64,000 nt of DNA from Escherichia coli (lineage in GTDB: Bacteria > Pseudomonadota > Gammaproteobacteria > Enterobacterales > Enterobacteriaceae). The notes beneath the pieces are model-generated. The model was not told the origin of the DNA and did not search any database. It was given only the letters and a program-made list of their open reading frames with translations. Positions 9,685 to 58,393 of this stretch are shown piece after piece (the first letter of the stretch is position 1; every line of letters begins with the position of its first letter). A program made the position numbers and the translations under genes. The stretch lies in the NCBI GenBank assembly GCA_009729775.1, contig GCA_009729775.1_4081.1; one strand, written 5' to 3'.

Positions 9685-9712
9685 ACTATCTTACAGATAC
9701 TTCTCTGCACCC
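9685..9712 (+). repeat. conserved 28-bp intergenic motif AGATAC...TGCACCCTGTGGGCTAG (copy 1)
   Basis: Read directly; same core in at least 8 intergenic sites. Confidence 0.7.
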
Positions 9713-9739: not shown

Positions 9740-9779
9740 ATAATAGCAAAGGGACTGACCGGAGTCAATCCCTTTTTTT
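9740..9779. terminator. stem-loop cassette GGGACTGACCGGAGTCAATCCC with flanking T-run; TTGACT box inside the stem
   Basis: Hairpin 9751-9772, T7 run on plus side; on minus strand TTGACT-N17-TATTAT promoter geometry. Confidence 0.55.
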
Positions 9780-23519: not shown

Positions 23520-23548
23520 TAACCCACAGGGTGCATAGATCCGTCTAT
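23520..23548 (-). repeat. conserved 28-bp intergenic motif (copy 6, inverted orientation)
   Basis: Plus strand reads CTAACCCACAGGGTGCATAGATCCGTCTA, reverse complement of the core. Confidence 0.65.
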
Positions 23549-27400: not shown

Positions 27401-27942
27401 ATACTATAGATCTATCTTTTGAAAGGGAGTATTCAGTACTGCCACAATAGCCCTCACTGTTACTGTAGGAGGATGAAGACTATCATGTAGTACTGAATAC
27501 TGTTAGAGGGAATCCACCAGCTTGTGCTGGTGGCATAATGCATTAGATTAAAATCAGTACTGACACCATTCTGTTAATATCAGTACTGTTTATATTACGA
27601 AAAAAGAGGTTATAAAAAGATGTACCACCCATAGGAGGAACTATCCTTTCAGTACTGTCTCACGACAGGAGGTAGAGTGAATGAATTGTTTGCGGCAACT
27701 CATCTCTCTATGTAGAACATTATACAGTACTGAATCATAATGTCAATAGCTTTCTTTCATTATTCAGTACTGAAATCGTATAATCTGTATCGCTACAAAA
27801 CTCATTATATCCCACAAATCCTATATGTCCCAACGTAAATTTCAACTTTCGAAGATCCAACTTTTATTTCATAGGTACTCCAAATTTTTTACGATCCAGA
27901 TTTAGGATGGAGTACTAACCAACTTTTTGCTGGAGCCTCAAG

Positions 27943-27990
27943 GGGTAATTGAATTTTACCCCGAATGGTAAAGGGGTAATTGAAATTAAG
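27943..27990. repeat. GGGGTAATTGAA direct repeat with embedded hairpin
   Basis: GGGGTAATTGAATTTTACCCC inverted repeat followed by a second GGGGTAATTGAA. Confidence 0.5.
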
Positions 27991-28009
27991 GTGAAAGTAA
28001 TAATTCAGT

Positions 28010-28260
28010 ACTAATCATTGCGTGATTACTTTTGATTACATTTGATGTAATTTGCAAAATGGAAAAGGAGCTTGGAAACTACAAAGTACGGCAGACTTCC
28101 TCTGCCTACTTAGTGGCATATCAGTACTGCTACGTTCTTGATTAAACGTGAACATTCCTGTACTCTAGTACTCACTACTGATCACTACAGTGATTATAAA
28201 TGATTACTTAAATGTTTATATATGATTACTTATGACTACCTATGATTACGGGGTTTAGCC
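28010..28260. repeat. cluster of TGATTAC heptamer repeats
   Basis: At least 7 copies of TGATTAC (or TGACTAC) in about 250 bp of non-coding DNA. Confidence 0.55.
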
Positions 28261-28363
28261 TGGGGAGAATCCTAGTGATCGCATTTGTCCAGGCTGAATT
28301 TTAACAATTCGCCTGTACATAAAGGTTGTTCACTAGGAGCTTCCCCTGTCTACTTGTGTTTAA

Positions 28364-28555
28364 TTACTTCCTATATATAAGCATTAAGATATAGTAGTAC
28401 TGATTATACTGTACATTCTCTTTAATATTATAAGGGTCTATCGCAATCTCGGTACATCTGTTAAATGCATATCTATTAAATGCCAGTGGAATTATAGATC
28501 TAATCCATACTTGTTCATTTTCTTTTAGTTTACTTATATAGAAGTTTTTATACAT
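28364..28555 (-). CDS. family-C small paralog (63 aa)
   Basis: One of about 10 tandem about 65-aa ORFs; MYKNFY start, C-terminal LIYRK. Confidence 0.5.
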   Translation of the reverse strand: MYKNFYISKLKENEQVWIRSIIPLAFNRYAFNRCTEIAIDPYNIKENVQYNQYYYILMLIYRK

Positions 28556-28570
28556 AGTATTCTCTATTAA

Positions 28571-28753
28571 TTAATATGATAGTACTAGTGTTAGTACTGA
28601 GCACAATTGTTCTTTATAGTTCTTAGGGTATATAGAATCTTTTATGCACTCATTGAAGTGCCATAGGTATAATCTTGGGTCGCATTCTTTATATATTCTT
28701 ACGGGGACGAATGTTAGTTTTCGTATATAGAATTCTTTATGTTCTTTATTCAT
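28571..28753 (-). CDS. family-C small paralog (about 60 aa)
   Basis: Start adjusted to MNKEHKEFY... Confidence 0.5.
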   Translation of the reverse strand: MNKEHKEFYIRKLTFVPVRIYKECDPRLYLWHFNECIKDSIYPKNYKEQLCSVLTLVLSY

Positions 28754-53049: not shown

Positions 53050-53691
53050 TCAATAAAAAACTGGATCTTCTTCAGTAATTGGTATTTCTCTACGCACATC
53101 ACACGAAAGAGGATCAGTAATGAATACATTCCCATCTTTATCCATCATCACATTACTTGAATGAATGTCTGGTACAAAACGCCCGTGAAATTCTTTCATG
53201 ATGTTAGCAGCGACCGTTGCAATAGCAATCTCTTCAGAATTTCCACGCATATCATTCACTGAAGTTGCGTACTGACCAGCATGTGCATACGAATACAAAT
53301 CACCAATTTTAGTACTAACAAAGTCATCATAATTATTTTTTTGTTTAATTATAGGATAGTACTTGTCCATCTCATACCATCCAAAGTTTCCTTGTTCGTT
53401 TGCACTGTAGATCACTGGAAGAAACTTGGTTCCTGCGTTTTCAATGCAGTACTTTGCATAAGCACGAAAACCATCCCAGCGTGAAGTGGTTACTTTAAAT
53501 GCACGCCCAGGATAGTTTTTATGTTCAACTACTACAGAGTACATCCCCATTCCAAGCAAAGTAAGTTCAGCAGCTTTAACTTGTGGAAAGATTACGCGTT
53601 CAGCATAAGGAATATCAAACTCCATCGCACAACGAGTTTTTGATGGACGCAAAATGTCAATTAAAGTTTTGAATATTTCTTGCTTAGTCAT
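53050..53691 (-). CDS. putative kinase-like protein (about 213 aa)
   Basis: Start adjusted to MTKQEIFK...; FVPDIHSSNVMMDKDGNVFITDP resembles the catalytic loop and metal-binding D of small-molecule/atypical kinases. Confidence 0.35.
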   Translation of the reverse strand: MTKQEIFKTLIDILRPSKTRCAMEFDIPYAERVIFPQVKAAELTLLGMGMYSVVVEHKNYPGRAFKVTTSRWDGFRAYAKYCIENAGTKFLPVIYSANEQGNFGWYEMDKYYPIIKQKNNYDDFVSTKIGDLYSYAHAGQYATSVNDMRGNSEEIAIATVAANIMKEFHGRFVPDIHSSNVMMDKDGNVFITDPLSCDVRREIPITEEDPVFY

Positions 53692-53719
53692 TACTTTATC
53701 CTCTGTAGTTAATATCAAC

Positions 53720-53753
53720 ATCATAACAAAAAAGGCTGACCGAAGTCAACCCT
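53720..53753 (-). terminator. dual terminator/promoter stem-loop cassette
   Basis: GGTTGACttcgGTCAGCC hairpin, U-run, TTGACT-N18-TATGAT on minus strand. Confidence 0.55.
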
Positions 53754-53760
53754 TTTATTA

Positions 53761-54180
53761 TCATTTACAGTTTTCTATAACTATTGCACGTTTTAGTATT
53801 TTACTTTCATAAACATACTTAAGATGACCTTCTTCACGAATACGATTGAACACATATCCTAGTTTATCTTTTAGTACTGAAGCGGTATCAATGTCAAGAT
53901 TAACTTCAACCCCTCCTGTTAATTTAACTTTATATGTAAAGCTAAAAGCATCACCAGATTCAACCAATGGGACTACTTGTTCATACGTATTCAACATAAC
54001 TCGTTCATCATCAACTAAATTATATATTACTATATCACAAGTTTTTACCCCAATTTCCTCTAAGGTAGGAGCATTGTCTACTATAACATCTTTTACTGTA
54101 TTTGCAACCTGTTTAGCATCTGCTGCATATACATTAAAACTAAAAAGTACTAAAATAATACTTAAAAAAATCTTTTTCAT
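53761..54180 (-). CDS. secreted protein with signal peptide (139 aa), paralog of 52579-52992
   Basis: Signal peptide MKKIFLSIILVLFSFNVYA. Confidence 0.65.
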   Translation of the reverse strand: MKKIFLSIILVLFSFNVYAADAKQVANTVKDVIVDNAPTLEEIGVKTCDIVIYNLVDDERVMLNTYEQVVPLVESGDAFSFTYKVKLTGGVEVNLDIDTASVLKDKLGYVFNRIREEGHLKYVYESKILKRAIVIENCK

Positions 54181-54189
54181 TATATATCC

Positions 54190-54519
54190 TTATTTTATTT
54201 TACACGTCATATCGGGTTGTGCTGGTTTATTATTTTTAAACGGATTAGGTTTTTTATCTTTCTTTTTATCTTTTAAAGGTTTTTTGTCTTCTTTTTTATC
54301 TTTATCTTTGTCTTTTTTATTGTTATCAGGTTCGGTTGGAGTATTACATTGTGCTGGTGATGGGTTCGTCGGGTTACAGCTATTGTCGGGTGGGAGTTTT
54401 ACTTCTTTACAATTGTAAAATAGTAAACTTTTATTTGTGGTTAAATTATGAAAACGATAGTTACGTTCATTATTATAATAAATTTTTTTAGTACTTTCAA
54501 TGTCATTACACATTGCCAC
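54190..54519 (-). CDS. Lys/Asp-rich low-complexity protein (109 aa)
   Basis: KKDKDKDKKEDKKPLKDKKKDKKP run. Confidence 0.45.
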   Translation of the reverse strand: MAMCNDIESTKKIYYNNERNYRFHNLTTNKSLLFYNCKEVKLPPDNSCNPTNPSPAQCNTPTEPDNNKKDKDKDKKEDKKPLKDKKKDKKPNPFKNNKPAQPDMTCKIK

Positions 54520-54523
54520 GGAA

Positions 54524-54775
54524 TCACCGAAACTCTTTTTCTATTCCGAGTACATCCGTCTTACGCTCAGATAGTATACCTGAAGTATATGAATCTTTGT
54601 TGTCAAACGCATTAAATCCAATAGTTCTGTCGGTGTCGTGTATTATTCCTTTTGTGTATGAGGTAGTATAGAACTCCCCATTTCTGAAATCCTGCCTTGC
54701 TACGGAGCAATGATAATCTGCACCATAAGCAGTACTGGAAAATAATACAATTCCAAATATAATATATTTTTTCAT
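54524..54775 (-). CDS. secreted small protein with signal peptide (83 aa)
   Basis: MKKYIIFGIVLFSSTAYGA. Confidence 0.6.
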   Translation of the reverse strand: MKKYIIFGIVLFSSTAYGADYHCSVARQDFRNGEFYTTSYTKGIIHDTDRTIGFNAFDNKDSYTSGILSERKTDVLGIEKEFR

Positions 54776-54802: not shown

Positions 54803-54834
54803 GTATTTACAAAAAAAGGCTGACCGAAGTCAAC
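54803..54834 (-). terminator. dual terminator/promoter stem-loop cassette
   Basis: GGTTGACttcgGTCAGCC hairpin plus U-run; TTGACT in stem. Confidence 0.55.
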
Positions 54835-54845
54835 CTTTAGTTTTA

Positions 54846-56390
54846 TCATTTACCGTATTTGCTCATGATGTCCTTTTCCCAATGAGTTACGTTACCGTTA
54901 TCGTAATCTTTAAAGGAATTATCAAGAGTAGTTAATGCATATTCGTATGCTTCAGGTGATTCAATGTCAACATCATCAGCACCATTTACTAAATCAGTCC
55001 ATGCTTTTTGTAGTTTACGAGCATTTTTACCAACATTACTTTTAATCCAACTAATGTTTTTGTTGATACTCTTATTATCAGCACCAGCTTTTTTACCAAT
55101 ATCGGATATCCACATCATTAGCTTTTGGAGTTCATGAATGGAGTTGTCGTTCATTTCACGATCTTTAGCCAATTCTGCTTCCATGCCATCAGTATCAGTA
55201 CCATCTTTAGAACCTACATCAATTCCATGTTTAGCTAATAGTTTACCAAGTTCAAAGAATGCTGCCTCAGCAGGGAAGTCATAACCTTTGTCTTTGTAGT
55301 TGTTCCATGCACTATCAAACTCATCTACAAATCGGTTGGCATAATCTGGATTGTCCACGAGAGCTTTGTACACTGCCATTGCATGTTCAAATCCTTCTTT
55401 GTCAGAACCAAACTCTCCCATTTCTGGACGATGAATGTAACCATCCATATCAACAGTATCAGGTAAATCATCATGAGATGTTTCAGCATCTTTCTGGTCA
55501 ACTGCACCTTCTTCATCTGCACGAACTAAGTAACCATCTTTTGATACTTTCTCACCATGTTCAGCTTCATACTTTTTCATAGTATTGAATGCAGAATTCA
55601 TAACAGTGATGAATCGAGACTTCTCACCTGGTGAGTAAGAATCTAATGCTGCTTTAATAGCATCATGTACTAATTGAATCTTATCATCTTTGCCTTCAAG
55701 ACGATTTTCTAACTTAGCAAGAACATTCTTAACTTGCTGGGCGTTAGCACGGTCTTCTTTACCTATACGGTTAACAGTATGGAGGATGCTTTCAAGACTT
55801 GCTTCTTCAGCAGTCGCTTCTTCTTGACCTTCAAGTGCACGCATGATAGTACTGAATACTTCAGTTGGTTCAGTACTGGTATTTCCACTCATTGCATCAA
55901 GTACAGCTTGTGCTTTGACTTTTAATTCTTCTTTAGGTACAGATTGCAATTCTTTCACAATACCTTGGATAAGTTGTGGTTTATTAGCAAAAATCTTACC
56001 TAACTTATCAGACAATTCTTTGACAGGGTTAACCGCCTTTGGTGCTTCTTGTTTTGGTTCTTCTTTCGCAGGAGCAGACTTTTCTTTTTCTTCACGTTCC
56101 ATATCAGCTAGGCGTTGTTTTTGTGTAGCATTAAGAAGTCCCAATGAATTAACATAACGTAGCTTTTCTAGCTCAGTCATGTTCTCAGTACTCTTAACTT
56201 CACCTGCTTCTGCGTTTGCTTTACCAGCTAGACCAGTTCCTTGGTTACGTGATCCACGTGAACCTTGACCTGCTTGATAACTATTTGGTCGGCGGTTGCG
56301 TTCACTCCATTTATCAGAGTGACCAGCCATGTTACCACCATTTTTATCAGTAAAATTACTTGGCATTTGATTTCTCTCCATAGATTTCAT
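54846..56390 (-). CDS. large charged protein (514 aa), function unknown
   Basis: ORF track; N-terminal LEKLRYVNSLGLLNATQKQRL block shared with 56636-57019. Confidence 0.7.
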   Translation of the reverse strand: MKSMERNQMPSNFTDKNGGNMAGHSDKWSERNRRPNSYQAGQGSRGSRNQGTGLAGKANAEAGEVKSTENMTELEKLRYVNSLGLLNATQKQRLADMEREEKEKSAPAKEEPKQEAPKAVNPVKELSDKLGKIFANKPQLIQGIVKELQSVPKEELKVKAQAVLDAMSGNTSTEPTEVFSTIMRALEGQEEATAEEASLESILHTVNRIGKEDRANAQQVKNVLAKLENRLEGKDDKIQLVHDAIKAALDSYSPGEKSRFITVMNSAFNTMKKYEAEHGEKVSKDGYLVRADEEGAVDQKDAETSHDDLPDTVDMDGYIHRPEMGEFGSDKEGFEHAMAVYKALVDNPDYANRFVDEFDSAWNNYKDKGYDFPAEAAFFELGKLLAKHGIDVGSKDGTDTDGMEAELAKDREMNDNSIHELQKLMMWISDIGKKAGADNKSINKNISWIKSNVGKNARKLQKAWTDLVNGADDVDIESPEAYEYALTTLDNSFKDYDNGNVTHWEKDIMSKYGK

Positions 56391-56413
56391 TTTTTCTCTA
56401 TGTCTATATTTAT

Positions 56414-56444
56414 AGTATAAAGAAAAGGCTGACCGAAGTCAACC
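56414..56444 (-). terminator. dual terminator/promoter stem-loop cassette
   Basis: GGTTGACttcgGTCAGCC hairpin; TTGACT-N17-TATACT on minus strand. Confidence 0.55.
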
Positions 56445-56452
56445 TTATTTTG

Positions 56453-56566
56453 TTACTTAGATTGTTCTTGTGCAGGTGGATTTACTTTTTGATCCACTAC
56501 ATAGAATACACCACCAACCAGAACTGCGGCGATGAGTGCAGCAACTACAAATTTCAAACCTTGCAT
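56453..56566 (-). CDS. small membrane peptide (37 aa), not in ORF track
   Basis: Hand translation MQGLKFVVAALIAAVLVGGVFYVVDQKVNPPAQEQSK; GAGGT RBS; sits between two cassettes. Confidence 0.5.
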   Translation of the reverse strand: MQGLKFVVAALIAAVLVGGVFYVVDQKVNPPAQEQSK

Positions 56567-56595
56567 ATATGATACCTCAGTTATATTGAGAAGTT

Positions 56596-56629
56596 ATGAT
56601 ACAACAAAGGGCTGACCTTAGTCAACCCC
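56596..56629 (-). terminator. dual terminator/promoter stem-loop cassette (variant loop)
   Basis: GGGGTTGACtaagGTCAGCCC hairpin; T-run on plus side, TTGACT-N18-TATCAT on minus. Confidence 0.5.
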
Positions 56630-56635
56630 TTTTTA

Positions 56636-57019
56636 TTACTTCTTGAACTTATGTTTTTCACTTTCGATTGCATTCACGATTTCATCATGAATTTTACGAA
56701 GATTGTGAGTTTTCTTGAGAGAATCATGCAATGCACGGAATGCAGAGTGTACAGTTGCTTTAAAGTGCTCTTTAGGAGTTACTTTAAGTTTCTCGATAAT
56801 ATCACGTACATAGATTGGGTGATCCTCAAACACACGATTAAGCTCATGACCTAGTGATTCTAGGCTAAATGCTTTTTCACGGGATGGACGATCATGTGCA
56901 AGACTTTGGTCTGGTTTTAGAAGACCTAGTGAATCTAGATACTTGTGCTTATGTGCATTGTCTAGACCAGAAATATCAACATCATGTGATGGATCTTTCT
57001 TATTCCATTTATCAACCAT
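56636..57019 (-). CDS. hypothetical protein (127 aa)
   Basis: HKHKYLDSLGLLKPDQ block similar to N-terminus of the 514-aa protein. Confidence 0.6.
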   Translation of the reverse strand: MVDKWNKKDPSHDVDISGLDNAHKHKYLDSLGLLKPDQSLAHDRPSREKAFSLESLGHELNRVFEDHPIYVRDIIEKLKVTPKEHFKATVHSAFRALHDSLKKTHNLRKIHDEIVNAIESEKHKFKK

Positions 57020-57134
57020 TTTTATAACTCCTATAAGAGATAAATTTTACTATAATATTTATAGTTCCGTTGTCATTTATATCGAATGACATAAAACATT
57101 ATATCATAATAAGAATGGTTGTCCCAAAGTTAAA

Positions 57135-57591: not shown

Positions 57592-58188
57592 TCATAAATC
57601 ACGAACAATATTCATTAAACACAATTTAGGTTTTATAGCATTCAACACCCATATGCATTCTTTGTAAGTAGCTATTATATCATCTAAATGCTCAGTTACA
57701 ATGCTTTCTTGAAAATATTCTTCATCATTGAGCTTTGCTAATTTAGTAACATCACACGTAGGCACTATAGGTCTGGATTGTACACCCATTCCATTATTGA
57801 TATTAGTGAAATGTACAAAATGGTACTTCACAACACCTTTATCTAGATTTATTATACATGACAAATTTTCCAACTCAGTTAGCTTTTTATTACAAGTAAC
57901 ATTAATGAAACCAGCATTATAGGCTCTATAATCATCTACTGATATCTCAAGATCATTACGCTCAAATATAAGTGAGATGAGTTGGTCGAGTGGTTTGACA
58001 TTCATATATTTTAATGAATTTACGTATGATACTTCAATCTTAGATGAAATTATCTTTTTACTAAGTGCAGTTAAATCTTTGTTAGATTTAACTGTTAAAA
58101 CAATAGGTTTAAACCTAGAACTTTTGTTCTTTTTTGATACTTTAAAACGACCTTTACGATTCATAATTTCCTCAATTAATAATTTCAC
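57592..58188 (-). CDS. family-B-like protein (198 aa), EEYFQESIV motif
   Basis: ORF track; family motif. Confidence 0.6.
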   Translation of the reverse strand: MKLLIEEIMNRKGRFKVSKKNKSSRFKPIVLTVKSNKDLTALSKKIISSKIEVSYVNSLKYMNVKPLDQLISLIFERNDLEISVDDYRAYNAGFINVTCNKKLTELENLSCIINLDKGVVKYHFVHFTNINNGMGVQSRPIVPTCDVTKLAKLNDEEYFQESIVTEHLDDIIATYKECIWVLNAIKPKLCLMNIVRDL

Positions 58189-58393
58189 ATTTAACGTGTG
58201 GTTTATATAGCATAATTAACCCATTTTTAAGTACAATGATTGTTGCTCTGTTAGTAATCGAAACGTTTTTAATTATACTTTTTTTATATGTTTCAACATA
58301 TTTCTCTTCATAATTTATACATTTAACATATTCTTTTTGTTTAGCACTTACAACAGTACTGAATAATATCAGTACAAGTACTATATATTTCAT
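58172..58393 (-). CDS. secreted small protein with signal peptide (73 aa)
   Basis: MKYIVLVLILFSTVVSA. Confidence 0.55.
   Translation of the reverse strand: MKYIVLVLILFSTVVSAKQKEYVKCINYEEKYVETYKKSIIKNVSITNRATIIVLKNGLIMLYKPHVKCEIIN

Follow-up and report, generated by a model that had tools for sequence, protein, structure and literature searches.

Two predicted virion-associated paralogues of RaK2-like jumbo phages share a conserved N-terminal domain

Two nearby genes in a 64,000-nucleotide stretch of DNA from an Escherichia coli assembly (the window, analysed over its whole length) encode proteins of very different size that carry the same short block of residues near their N-termini. The question raised by this locus is what the block stands for. 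A preliminary description of the DNA considered it a shared module on otherwise different proteins, possibly serving in targeting or interaction, and proposed relatives of T4 internal or injected proteins as one possibility. The internal proteins of T4 carry a tag of ~10 residues at their extreme N-terminus, which is cleaved by gp21, on divergent mature parts (PMC9026906).

The window is 98.9% identical in nucleotide sequence to the phages G17 and Sharanji (Asteriusvirus). By this identity, it is an already sequenced giant E. coli phage, i.e., an Asteriusvirus (RaK2-like) jumbo myovirus. The counterparts of both proteins in G17 and Sharanji are 99–100% identical and those in 121Q 82–99%, and the gene order around both genes is the same in the relatives. 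With 99–100% identity to deposited, annotated phage genes, the genes themselves are thus already known. Three genes make up the locus:

54846–56366, minus strand: large paralogue, 506 aa, pI 5.1, 32% charged residues, PHROG 20398
56453–56566, minus strand: gene for a 37-aa single-pass membrane peptide, equal to 121Q gp200, PHROG 35037
56636–57019, minus strand: small paralogue, 127 aa, pI 9.05, equal to 121Q gp199, phAPEC6 gp037c and JP4_541, PHROG 16530

The equivalents of the large paralogue are 121Q gp201, phAPEC6 gp035c, JP4_543 and G17_00112, and its orthologue in RaK2 is gp275. The 37-aa gene, an ORF with a single transmembrane segment, separates the two paralogues as was described before; it is homologous to neither of them and has no late-promoter motif. 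The open reading frame of the large gene extends up to 56390 and encodes 514 aa when counted from the first ATG, which is the length given earlier. The true start is most likely ATG 56366, yielding a protein of 506 aa (MPSNF...), because this codon is preceded by a GGAGAG ribosome-binding site, the PHROG profile and all homologues begin at the equivalent position and the annotation of G17 does likewise.

Several comparisons bear on the relationship between the two proteins. BLASTP aligns them with 24% identity over 119 columns (E 5e-8), and their Smith–Waterman score of 82 stands against 36 ± 5.5 for shuffled sequences (n = 1000; z = 8.3), with none of the 1000 shuffles scoring as high. Profile–profile alignment with hhalign gives a probability of 99.5% (E 3.4e-23, 135 columns), matching the small protein over its entire length to residues 1–182 of the large one. 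When sub-domains are compared, the motif helix of the large protein matches the small family with 97% probability (E 9e-11), and the four-helix bundles are homologous as well (region 53–123 of the small protein to residues 117–182 of the large one, 95.5%, E 1.4e-8). By these alignments, the two proteins are true paralogues, homologous over ~125 residues, and the shared block is a portion of a whole conserved lineage-specific domain instead of a short T4-style tag. The earlier idea of a shared module on otherwise different proteins is therefore upheld, the module being longer than was thought and comprising the whole small protein; the alternative that similarity would end with the short block is contradicted by the ~125 residues that hhalign aligns. 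A candidate repeat of the bundle within the large protein, suggested by a BLASTP match of its residues 198–251 to residues 52–100 of the small protein (E 0.003), was rejected with an hhalign probability of 1.4%. Among the sub-domains of the large protein, a weak 41% was found for D3 versus D5, the sole pair to reach that level.

Three parts make up the shared unit: a conserved leader with predicted disorder, an amphipathic helix with the pattern K-x-x-Y-x-x-x-L-G-L-L and, after a variable linker, a four-helix bundle. Both copies of the block lie within the first 80 residues of their protein, as first noticed. The parts map as follows:

56193–56366, minus strand: basic leader of the large paralogue, residues 1–58 (MPSNFTDKNGG...GQGSRGSRNQGTGLAGKAN), pI 10.2, predicted disordered
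56133–56165, minus strand: motif helix of the large paralogue, KLRYVNSLGLL, residues 68–78 (AF2 helix 65–74, pLDDT ~80)
55821–56033, minus strand: four-helix bundle of the large paralogue, residues 112–182, column identity 0.72–0.86
54849–55820, minus strand: acidic all-alpha C-terminal extension, residues 183–506, pI 4.8, present in the large form only
56918–56950, minus strand: motif helix of the small paralogue, KHKYLDSLGLL, residues 24–34 (AF2 helix 21–30)
56651–56863, minus strand: four-helix bundle of the small paralogue, residues 53–123, AF2 pLDDT ~80

The leader of the large paralogue is basic and rich in Gly, Ser, Arg, Asn and Gln. It has an AF2 pLDDT below 50 and a mean column identity of 0.67–0.73 among 29 homologues. 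Four positions of the motif helix are invariant in both families (K68, Y71, L75 and G76 in the large paralogue; K24, Y27, L31 and G32 in the small one), and L77 and L78 of the large paralogue are nearly so. The helices of the small bundle are modelled at residues 53–63, 68–79, 83–103 and 107–123; in the large protein, the bundle is the best conserved part. The 506-aa protein is thus the shared unit fused with a mosaic, acidic, all-helical C-terminal extension. In this extension, residues ~300–385 are missing from 50–70% of the homologues and the last ~100 residues are conserved, and the large forms range from 412 to 606 aa. The C-terminal domain of the large form is also found alone, as P0092. 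Overall, AF2 models both proteins as all-alpha with long stretches of disorder, at moderate confidence (pLDDT 68 and 72, pTM 0.50 and 0.29). Foldseek searches of the PDB (entries to April 2026) and BFVD returned only generic helical bundles or members of the family itself, and nothing above noise that would point to a function was found with Pfam, NCBIfam and a sequence-profile search of the PDB. The label 'chromosome segregation' (SMC/SbcC) of phAPEC6 gp035c was rejected, as it rests on an E-value of 0.039 that neither Pfam nor NCBIfam reproduced.

The family appears to be restricted to one lineage of phages. With tblastn, it was confined to RaK2-like jumbo phages, and a search of 1.84 billion proteins matched 32 representatives and no more. 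Family members include 121Q gp199 and gp201, phAPEC6 gp037c and gp035c, RaK2 gp275, CBB_38, Serratia BF gp027 and GAP32_032. The 127-aa protein matches PHROG 16530 with 6.2e-56; the 506-aa protein matches PHROG 20398 with 9.3e-210 and PHROG 16530, the family of the small protein, with 7.5e-38. Judged by these profile matches, both are direct members of 'virion structural protein' families of RaK2-like jumbo phages, from which they do not differ in substance. A standalone form of the shared unit, ~155–180 aa long, occurs in Eneladusvirus, Mimasvirus and related phages and aligns in tblastn with residues 1–180 of the large protein. The alignments indicate that the leader is kept in standalone forms and mostly deleted from the small paralogue. 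Three architectures can hence be told apart: standalone with the leader, standalone without it, and fused to a long C-terminus. In RaK2, ORF276, which adjoins gp275, was considered as the small paralogue and rejected because it is unrelated. Further carriers of the module were sought with an HMM of the shared domain and a regular expression of the motif, both in all ORFs of the window and in all ORFs of the 352.6-kb phAPEC6 genome; only the two known genes were found in each. Since phAPEC6 has only these two carrier genes, the module is not a general address label.

The expression signals around the genes are given below, each terminator lying 3′ of the stop codon of its gene:

57056–57063, minus strand: TATAAATA, T4-type late-promoter motif of the small gene, 36 nt upstream of its ATG
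56407–56414, minus strand: TATAAATA, T4-type late-promoter motif of the large gene, 40 nt upstream of ATG 56366
56610–56627, minus strand: hairpin terminator of the small gene, variant GGTTGACTAAGGTCAGCC; a terminator is annotated here in G17
56427–56444, minus strand: hairpin terminator of the 37-aa gene, GGTTGACTTCGGTCAGCC
54818–54835, minus strand: hairpin terminator of the large gene, GGTTGACTTCGGTCAGCC; a terminator is annotated here in G17

The preliminary description had placed each protein directly downstream of a stem-loop. This is correct in plus-strand coordinates only; the genes are on the minus strand, and the stem-loops are predicted terminators of the preceding reading frames. 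In addition, the TTGACT of the small-gene terminator forms, together with a downstream TATCAT, a sigma70-like promoter facing the 37-aa gene. A second sigma70-like promoter (TTGACT, a 17-nt spacer and TATACT), at the terminator of the 37-aa gene, overlaps the late-promoter motif. In the 64-kb window, TATAAATA occurs twice, less often than the 14.3 ± 3.3 copies expected, and each copy precedes one of the paralogue genes. The same arrangement is seen in phAPEC6, where the motif lies 36 nt upstream of gp037c and 40 nt upstream of gp035c, equal to the spacings in the window. Its whole genome contains 15 copies against ~68 expected, 8 of which sit 34–47 nt upstream of virion genes verified by MS; these include the genes for the major capsid protein (gp225c) and the scaffold (gp226c), at 45 and 47 nt. 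A late sigma factor is annotated in this phage as gp237c. For CBB, the authors described an ATAAATA late motif before structural genes (PMC5259590). Each paralogue gene is accordingly predicted to be a transcription unit of its own, with a T4-type late promoter and its own hairpin terminator, and both proteins are probably made late, as judged by the TATAAATA promoters.

In the literature on these families, the entries are structural or hypothetical, and the paralogy, the three architectures and the dedicated late promoters are not described there. What this analysis adds is a tidier description (the paralogy, the domain map, the corrected start codon and the proteins' own late promoters) and not a new kind of system.

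According to published mass spectrometry, four virion proteomes, obtained independently from phages of three genera, contain these proteins or homologues of them. MS/MS of purified phAPEC6 virions identified gp035c with 8 peptides (28.8% coverage) and gp037c with 5 peptides (48%) (PMC7247149). In those of JP4, JP4_543 and JP4_541 were detected (PMC12648861). Their abundance was modest, with 4 and 2 peptides and 5e6 and 1.6e6 units versus 1.4e8 for a major component, these being protein-level values of the supplementary MS table (PMC12648861). The small proteins of phAPEC6 and JP4 are 99% identical to the one in the window, differing in one residue. RaK2 gp275, a large form, was represented by 20 unique peptides (34.3%), a number exceeded only by the 21 of the tail sheath (PMC3622015), and CBB_38, a standalone form, was found in virions with 9 peptides and 56.6% coverage (PMC5259590). 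From the gene numbering and the label 'structural protein', CBB_38 would be FDG95_gp038. The virion association that had been predicted thus agrees with the presence of homologues of both proteins in phAPEC6 and JP4 particles, of the large form in RaK2 and of the standalone form in CBB. Detection in virions alone does not prove a structural role, because the same lists also contain SSB, a RecA-like protein and a topoisomerase, besides thymidylate synthase (PMC7247149). The coverage of CBB_38 is informative on processing too: 56.6% exceeds 43.6%, the highest coverage attainable after loss of all residues before residue 79, which suggests that the N-terminal part is at least partly kept.

The explanation that we favor, at a probability slightly short of even, is that these are late-expressed paralogous virion proteins that dock in the particle through their shared domain, probably in the head interior. 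While particles assemble, the domain would attach both proteins to a single shared partner, and it would remain on the mature protein. The basic leader may contact DNA, and the variable extension of the large form may serve as a spacer or an effector. The site would most likely be the head interior, in association with the core or the inner body. This location is favored for three reasons: the relatives 121Q and phAPEC6 have a phiKZ-like inner body to which no proteins have been assigned; the two proteins are helical and disordered and show none of the beta-rich folds that tail, baseplate, fibre or decoration proteins usually have; and both genes are found away from the block of structural genes. 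Some observations speak against this explanation. A C-terminus that is mosaic and changes quickly would be no less fitting for a protein exposed to the host, the two proteins are of modest abundance in JP4, a conserved T4-type [L/I]-x-E site is absent and there is no similarity to internal proteins of T4 or phiKZ.

If the extension did face the environment, both proteins could be external accessory proteins, anchored by the shared domain to the outside of the particle, e.g., at the base of hair-like fibres on capsid or tail or as a neck or whisker adaptor. Indeed, phAPEC6 and CBB bear unusual hairy fibres on capsid and tail to which no proteins have been assigned (PMC7247149, PMC5259590), and, like many fibre and adaptor proteins, the large protein combines a conserved N-terminus with a mosaic, indel-prone remainder; detection in virions and late promoters fit such proteins equally well. 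However, the models are wholly helical or disordered and show no beta-rich, Ig-like or trimeric fibre-like fold, the genes lie outside not only the structural but also the fibre clusters, the extreme C-terminus is conserved, unlike receptor-binding tips, and the extension is lacking altogether from the standalone 155-aa form. We therefore consider an external position unlikely.

A third explanation is that the proteins are late DNA- or nucleoid-associated non-structural proteins that co-purify with virions or are passively packaged with the genome. DNA binding would agree with the basic character of the leader (pI 10.2) and of the small paralogue (pI 9.05), replication and recombination proteins occur in the same MS lists, and phAPEC6 gp035c is loosely annotated as a chromosome segregation protein. 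This annotation is the SMC/SbcC label that could not be reproduced, and repeated detection in the four proteomes of three genera, together with a TATAAATA promoter geometry exactly like that of the capsid and scaffold genes, makes passive carry-over quite improbable.

The comparison with T4 reveals similarities as well as differences. As with the T4 internal proteins and Alt, these are late-made virion proteins, encoded apart from the main head gene block, with an N-terminal element common to otherwise differing proteins, in a phage that has a T4-like prohead protease and T4-type late promoters. Whereas the T4 tag is short and cleaved, the element here is a domain of ~125–180 residues that is apparently retained, carried by only two proteins, without a conserved cleavage site and without sequence similarity to internal proteins or Alt. 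Across the family, no [LIV]-x-E cleavage site is conserved after the motif; such sites are abundant in the phage scaffold and sparse in the two paralogues. The sequence NPVKE|L is invariant in the large form, and the small and standalone forms have no conserved equivalent. Similarity to T4 IPI, IPII, IPIII or Alt was absent from searches of Pfam (E <= 1), PHROGs (E <= 0.1), NCBIfam and PDB sequences, so that the proposed kinship with these proteins has no match behind it. A T4-like system, in which the block would serve as a short capsid-targeting tag for bringing in unrelated cargo, to be cleaved off afterwards by the prohead protease, could draw on the gp21-like protease, the many [LIV]-x-E sites of the scaffold, the LTE|S at residue 43 of the capsid protein, the tagged divergent proteins of T4 itself and the denV and other T4-like genes nearby, but is very improbable given that the block begins only at residue 24 or 68 behind differing N-termini (MVDKW versus MPSNF), that the homology includes a folded bundle, that phAPEC6 has only two carriers, that neither a conserved cleavage motif nor a profile match to IPI, Alt or similar families was found and that the coverage of CBB_38 suggests a retained N-terminal part.

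Docking in the head, the preferred reading, leads to a comparison with phiKZ. A phiKZ-like inner body was seen by bubblegram imaging in 121Q (PMC5646251) and in phAPEC6, among whose proteins the authors found no homologue of a phiKZ inner-body protein (PMC7247149). In phiKZ, the inner-body proteins are gp89, gp90, gp93, gp95, gp97 and gp162; five of the six are encoded in one gene cluster, and some are injected with the DNA (PMC13282480). Proteins of this type would be expected in 100–200 copies per head, with processing by the head protease; the peptide counts of the present family are high in RaK2 (20) and modest in JP4. The two paralogues resemble the phiKZ proteins in being adjacent virion-protein genes of a phage whose relatives 121Q and phAPEC6 have an inner body. 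They differ in number (two members versus six) and in having no sequence or fold relationship: no cross-family PHROG match to phiKZ inner-body proteins was found, nor a fold match in Foldseek searches of PDB and BFVD. The text of the phiKp24 cryo-EM paper mentions neither internal or inner-body proteins nor mass spectrometry (PMC9700779).

Being late, virion-associated and non-beta, and having a lineage-restricted domain of a docking type, the paralogues are reasonable candidates for the contents of the RaK2-like inner body. A bolder and doubtful proposal is that the paralogues and the standalone 155-aa form are the first identifiable inner-body or ejected components of RaK2-like phages, unrelated to those of phiKZ. 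In this view, the N-terminal domain would remain on the proteins as a docking module, bringing them to the prohead core, and the large form would carry a swappable effector or spacer into the host. If this were true, the module could be a handle for loading foreign cargo into these very large capsids.

The small protein (127 aa) and the large protein (506 aa) encoded at this locus are paralogues, as alignments and profile comparisons show. The two N-terminal blocks pointed out in the preliminary description are present in the translations (KLRYVNSLGLL at 56133-56165 and KHKYLDSLGLL at 56918-56950), and the similarity does not end there, as it extends over the entire small protein. BLASTP aligns both sequences with 24% identity over 119 columns (E 5e-8), and the Smith-Waterman score lies 8.3 standard deviations over shuffles, with 0 of 1000 shuffles reaching the real score. 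Profile-profile comparison, based on 14 small-family and 29 large-family sequences, gives a probability of 99.5% (E 3.4e-23) over 135 columns, which match all of the small protein to the first 182 residues of its larger counterpart. Between the two families, the helix carrying the motif K-x-x-Y-x-x-x-L-G-L-L (E 9e-11) and the four-helix bundle behind it (E 1.4e-8) are each significant alone. Residues K68, Y71, L75, G76, L122, F126, P130, I136, L140 and A177 are invariant in both families, and L77, L78, P144, K145, E146 and K149 nearly so.

The domain architecture of both proteins follows from their AlphaFold models, which are all-alpha. In the small protein, a short helix covers the motif, and a disordered stretch connects it to a bundle of four helices (residues 53-123, pLDDT ~80). 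In the large protein (pLDDT 72, pTM 0.29 for the model), residues 1-57 form a disordered leader, the motif helix covers 65-74, and a charged linker leads to the homologous bundle (114-179), behind which helical bundles follow in series with disordered linkers between them. The leader, in which Gly, Ser, Arg, Asn and Gln are abundant, has a basic pI (10.2) and the C-terminal 321 residues an acidic one (4.8); the pI of the small paralogue is basic (9.05). Among 29 homologues, conservation is highest in the first 180 residues (column identity 0.67-0.86), residues ~300-385 are absent from 50-70% and the last ~100 residues are moderately conserved. Homologue lengths range between 412 and 606 aa.

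Homologues of both proteins are restricted to RaK2-like jumbo phages; among 1.84 billion representative proteins searched by profile, 32 matched. Three architectures occur. The first, leader, motif and bundle (~155-180 aa), is found in Serratia BF gp027, GAP32, CBB, Yersinia fHe-Yen9-03/04, Erwinia Eneladusvirus and Xanthomonas XbC2. The second, motif and bundle without leader (~125 aa), comprises the small protein and Salmonella Munch-like phages. The third adds a long C-terminus to leader, motif and bundle, as in the large protein, RaK2 gp275 and the K64-1 homologue. RaK2-type phages have the large form only, Asteriusvirus both. No further module copies were detected in the 64-kb window, nor, with a domain HMM and a motif regex, in the whole phAPEC6 genome besides gp035c and gp037c.

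The three ORFs of the locus lie on the - strand at the coordinates first assigned to them. The stem-loops, which had been placed upstream of the genes, are instead intrinsic terminators 3' of each stop codon, annotated as terminators in phage G17.

Features of the locus
57063-57056, - strand: TATAAATA late-promoter motif of the small gene (motif search)
57019-56636, - strand: 127-aa gene (ORF)
56627-56610, - strand: hairpin 3' of the 127-aa gene (intrinsic terminator)
56566-56453, - strand: 37-aa membrane peptide gene (ORF)
56444-56427, - strand: hairpin 3' of the 37-aa gene, followed at once by TATAAATA (intrinsic terminator)
56414-56407, - strand: TATAAATA late-promoter motif of the large gene (motif search)
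56366-54846, - strand: 506-aa gene (ORF, corrected start)
54835-54818, - strand: hairpin 3' of the 506-aa gene (intrinsic terminator)

The most probable start codon of the large gene is ATG 56366, giving 506 aa, since a GGAGAG ribosome-binding site precedes this codon, the PHROG profile begins there and every homologue starts with MP-x-x-F. The ORF stays open for 8 codons further upstream (56367-56390, - strand), which is why a first-ATG rule yields 514 aa.

Each gene has its own late-promoter motif and terminator. The T4 late-promoter consensus TATAAATA occurs twice in the 64-kb window, both strands counted, against 14.3 +/- 3.3 copies expected. Both copies are on the coding strand, 36 (small) and 40 nt (large) upstream of the start codons. 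The assembled phAPEC6 genome contains 15 copies against ~68 expected, 8 of which lie 34-47 nt upstream of genes with virion-detected products. Among these products are the major head protein (motif at 45 nt) and the scaffold (at 47 nt), as well as gp158c, gp238, gp323c and the homologues gp035c and gp037c, at the identical 40 and 36 nt. For a random site, the chance of such a position is ~0.002, taking 62 genes and a window of 21 nt. Copies also precede gp232, gp234 (endonuclease VII) and gp242. The depletion suggests that the motif is counter-selected away from late genes. From the dedicated motifs, their capsid- and scaffold-like spacing, the annotation of phAPEC6 gp237c as late sigma factor and the ATAAATA motif reported before structural genes of CBB (PMC5259590), we infer that each gene is an independent late transcription unit within a run of small, mostly uncharacterised same-strand genes.

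Other repeated signals occur in the window. The hairpin GGTTGACTTCGGTCAGCC is present in 11 copies (up to 3 mismatches), all on the - strand, at 9753, 15035, 19089, 47751, 48450, 49033, 53734, 54818, 56427, 56610 and 59853. At most copies, a stop codon, A-run, hairpin, T-run, TATAAT-like box (~17 nt after the TTGAC of the stem), ribosome-binding site and the next ATG follow each other, which looks like a terminator combined with a sigma70-type early promoter. The layout recalls the PeSL cassettes known from T4-type phages. The 15-mer AGCCCACAGGGTGCA has 7 copies (up to 2 mismatches; 0.03 expected), at 9706, 14988, 17347, 19037 and 25337 (- strand) and at 23521 and 27032 (+ strand), 3 of them ~30-35 nt downstream of GGTTGACTTCGGTCAGCC cassettes. 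Between ~28000 and 41000, the GC skew flips from negative to positive and back, consistent with a + strand gene block in an otherwise - strand region. No tRNA genes were found in the 64-kb window.

Near the locus, three small - strand ORFs (53761-54180, 54524-54775 and 58172-58393) have signal-peptide-like N-termini (MKKIFLSIILVLFSFNVYA, MKKYIIFGIVLFSSTAYG and MKYIVLVLILFSTVVSA) and may encode secreted or periplasmic phage proteins. A 109-aa ORF (54190-54519, - strand), hypothetical in relatives (121Q gp203), has a low-complexity C-terminal half rich in Lys, Asp and Pro. Just downstream of the locus, on the same strand, lies a T7 gp0.7-like protein kinase gene (53050-53724), annotated as protein kinase in 121Q (gp205), G17 and phAPEC6 (gp031c).

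The 3.2 kb around the locus share 98.9% identity with Escherichia phages vB_EcoM_G17 and Sharanji, and 91-97% with further jumbo myoviruses of Asteriusvirus, among them slurp01, PBECO4, 121Q and phAPEC6; gene order is conserved in 121Q, G17 and phAPEC6. The equivalents are gp199 and gp201 in 121Q, each labelled 'virion structural protein' in RefSeq, and gp037c (small) and gp035c (large) in phAPEC6. Both genes match deposited phage genes at 99-100% identity, and their homologues already carry this label, with proteomic support. In the literature consulted, we did not find descriptions of the paralogy over the whole length, of the three architectures, of the start codon as corrected or of the two sole TATAAATA copies of the 64 kb serving these genes; this amounts to a refinement rather than a discovery.

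The association with virions that had been proposed is supported by published proteomes, in which homologues are present in purified particles. ESI-MS/MS of phAPEC6 detected gp035c (8 unique peptides, 28.8% coverage) and gp037c (5 peptides, 48%) (PMC7247149). LC-MS/MS of JP4 detected JP4_541 (127 aa; 4 peptides, 29%) and JP4_543 (417 aa; 2 peptides, 5%) (PMC12648861). RaK2 gp275, with 20 unique peptides (34.3%), is exceeded only by the tail sheath with 21 (PMC3622015 Table S3). CBB_38, equated with RefSeq gp038 by gene number and the label 'structural protein', yielded 9 peptides and 56.6% coverage (PMC5259590). Since an in-silico digest allows at most 43.6% if everything N-terminal of residue 79 is absent, at least part of the conserved N-terminal half is probably present in particles.

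A kinship with T4 internal proteins was not supported: searches of Pfam, NCBIfam, PDB and PHROGs gave no link to IPI, IPII, IPIII or Alt. The Pfam, NCBIfam and PDB sequence searches returned only noise, and in PHROGs both proteins match their own two families only. Nor did anything connect the two proteins with the phiKZ inner-body proteins. The GenBank name of phAPEC6 gp035c (record 27482-28735), 'chromosome segregation protein', is probably misleading, as it has only a match of E 0.039 and no support from Pfam or NCBIfam.

As to mechanism, the conserved N-terminal domain is proposed to bind a partner common to both proteins during assembly, and both would then be incorporated through it. That the leader is strongly conserved despite its predicted disorder points to recognition by, or folding upon, a partner or DNA. 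Incorporation of both proteins through this domain, at a location inside the head, is the reading we tentatively favour, at slightly less than an even chance. An interior location is favoured because both proteins are helical and disordered rather than beta-rich, their genes lie outside the structural gene block and gp275 stands out in the RaK2 proteome. An external role, as adaptor for the 'hairs' of capsid and tail, seems unlikely. That they are late DNA-associated proteins merely co-purifying with virions is less probable still. A cleavable tag is very improbable: in T4, the capsid-targeting sequence is an N-terminal propeptide of 10 residues that gp21 cuts off (PMC9026906), whereas the shared unit of the present proteins is a long, folded and internal one, occurs on two paralogues only and appears retained, and T4-type [LIV]-x-E sites, which the phAPEC6 scaffold carries at high density (25 listed) and its capsid protein also contains (LTE|S, residue 43), are sparse in gp035c and gp037c, with none conserved across the family sequences compared. 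Incorporation into the head interior is further favoured by the phiKZ-like inner body seen in bubblegrams of 121Q (PMC5646251) and phAPEC6 (PMC7247149), to which no proteins have been assigned. That both proteins are inner-body components of RaK2-like phages is a possibility we regard as real, if rather doubtful.
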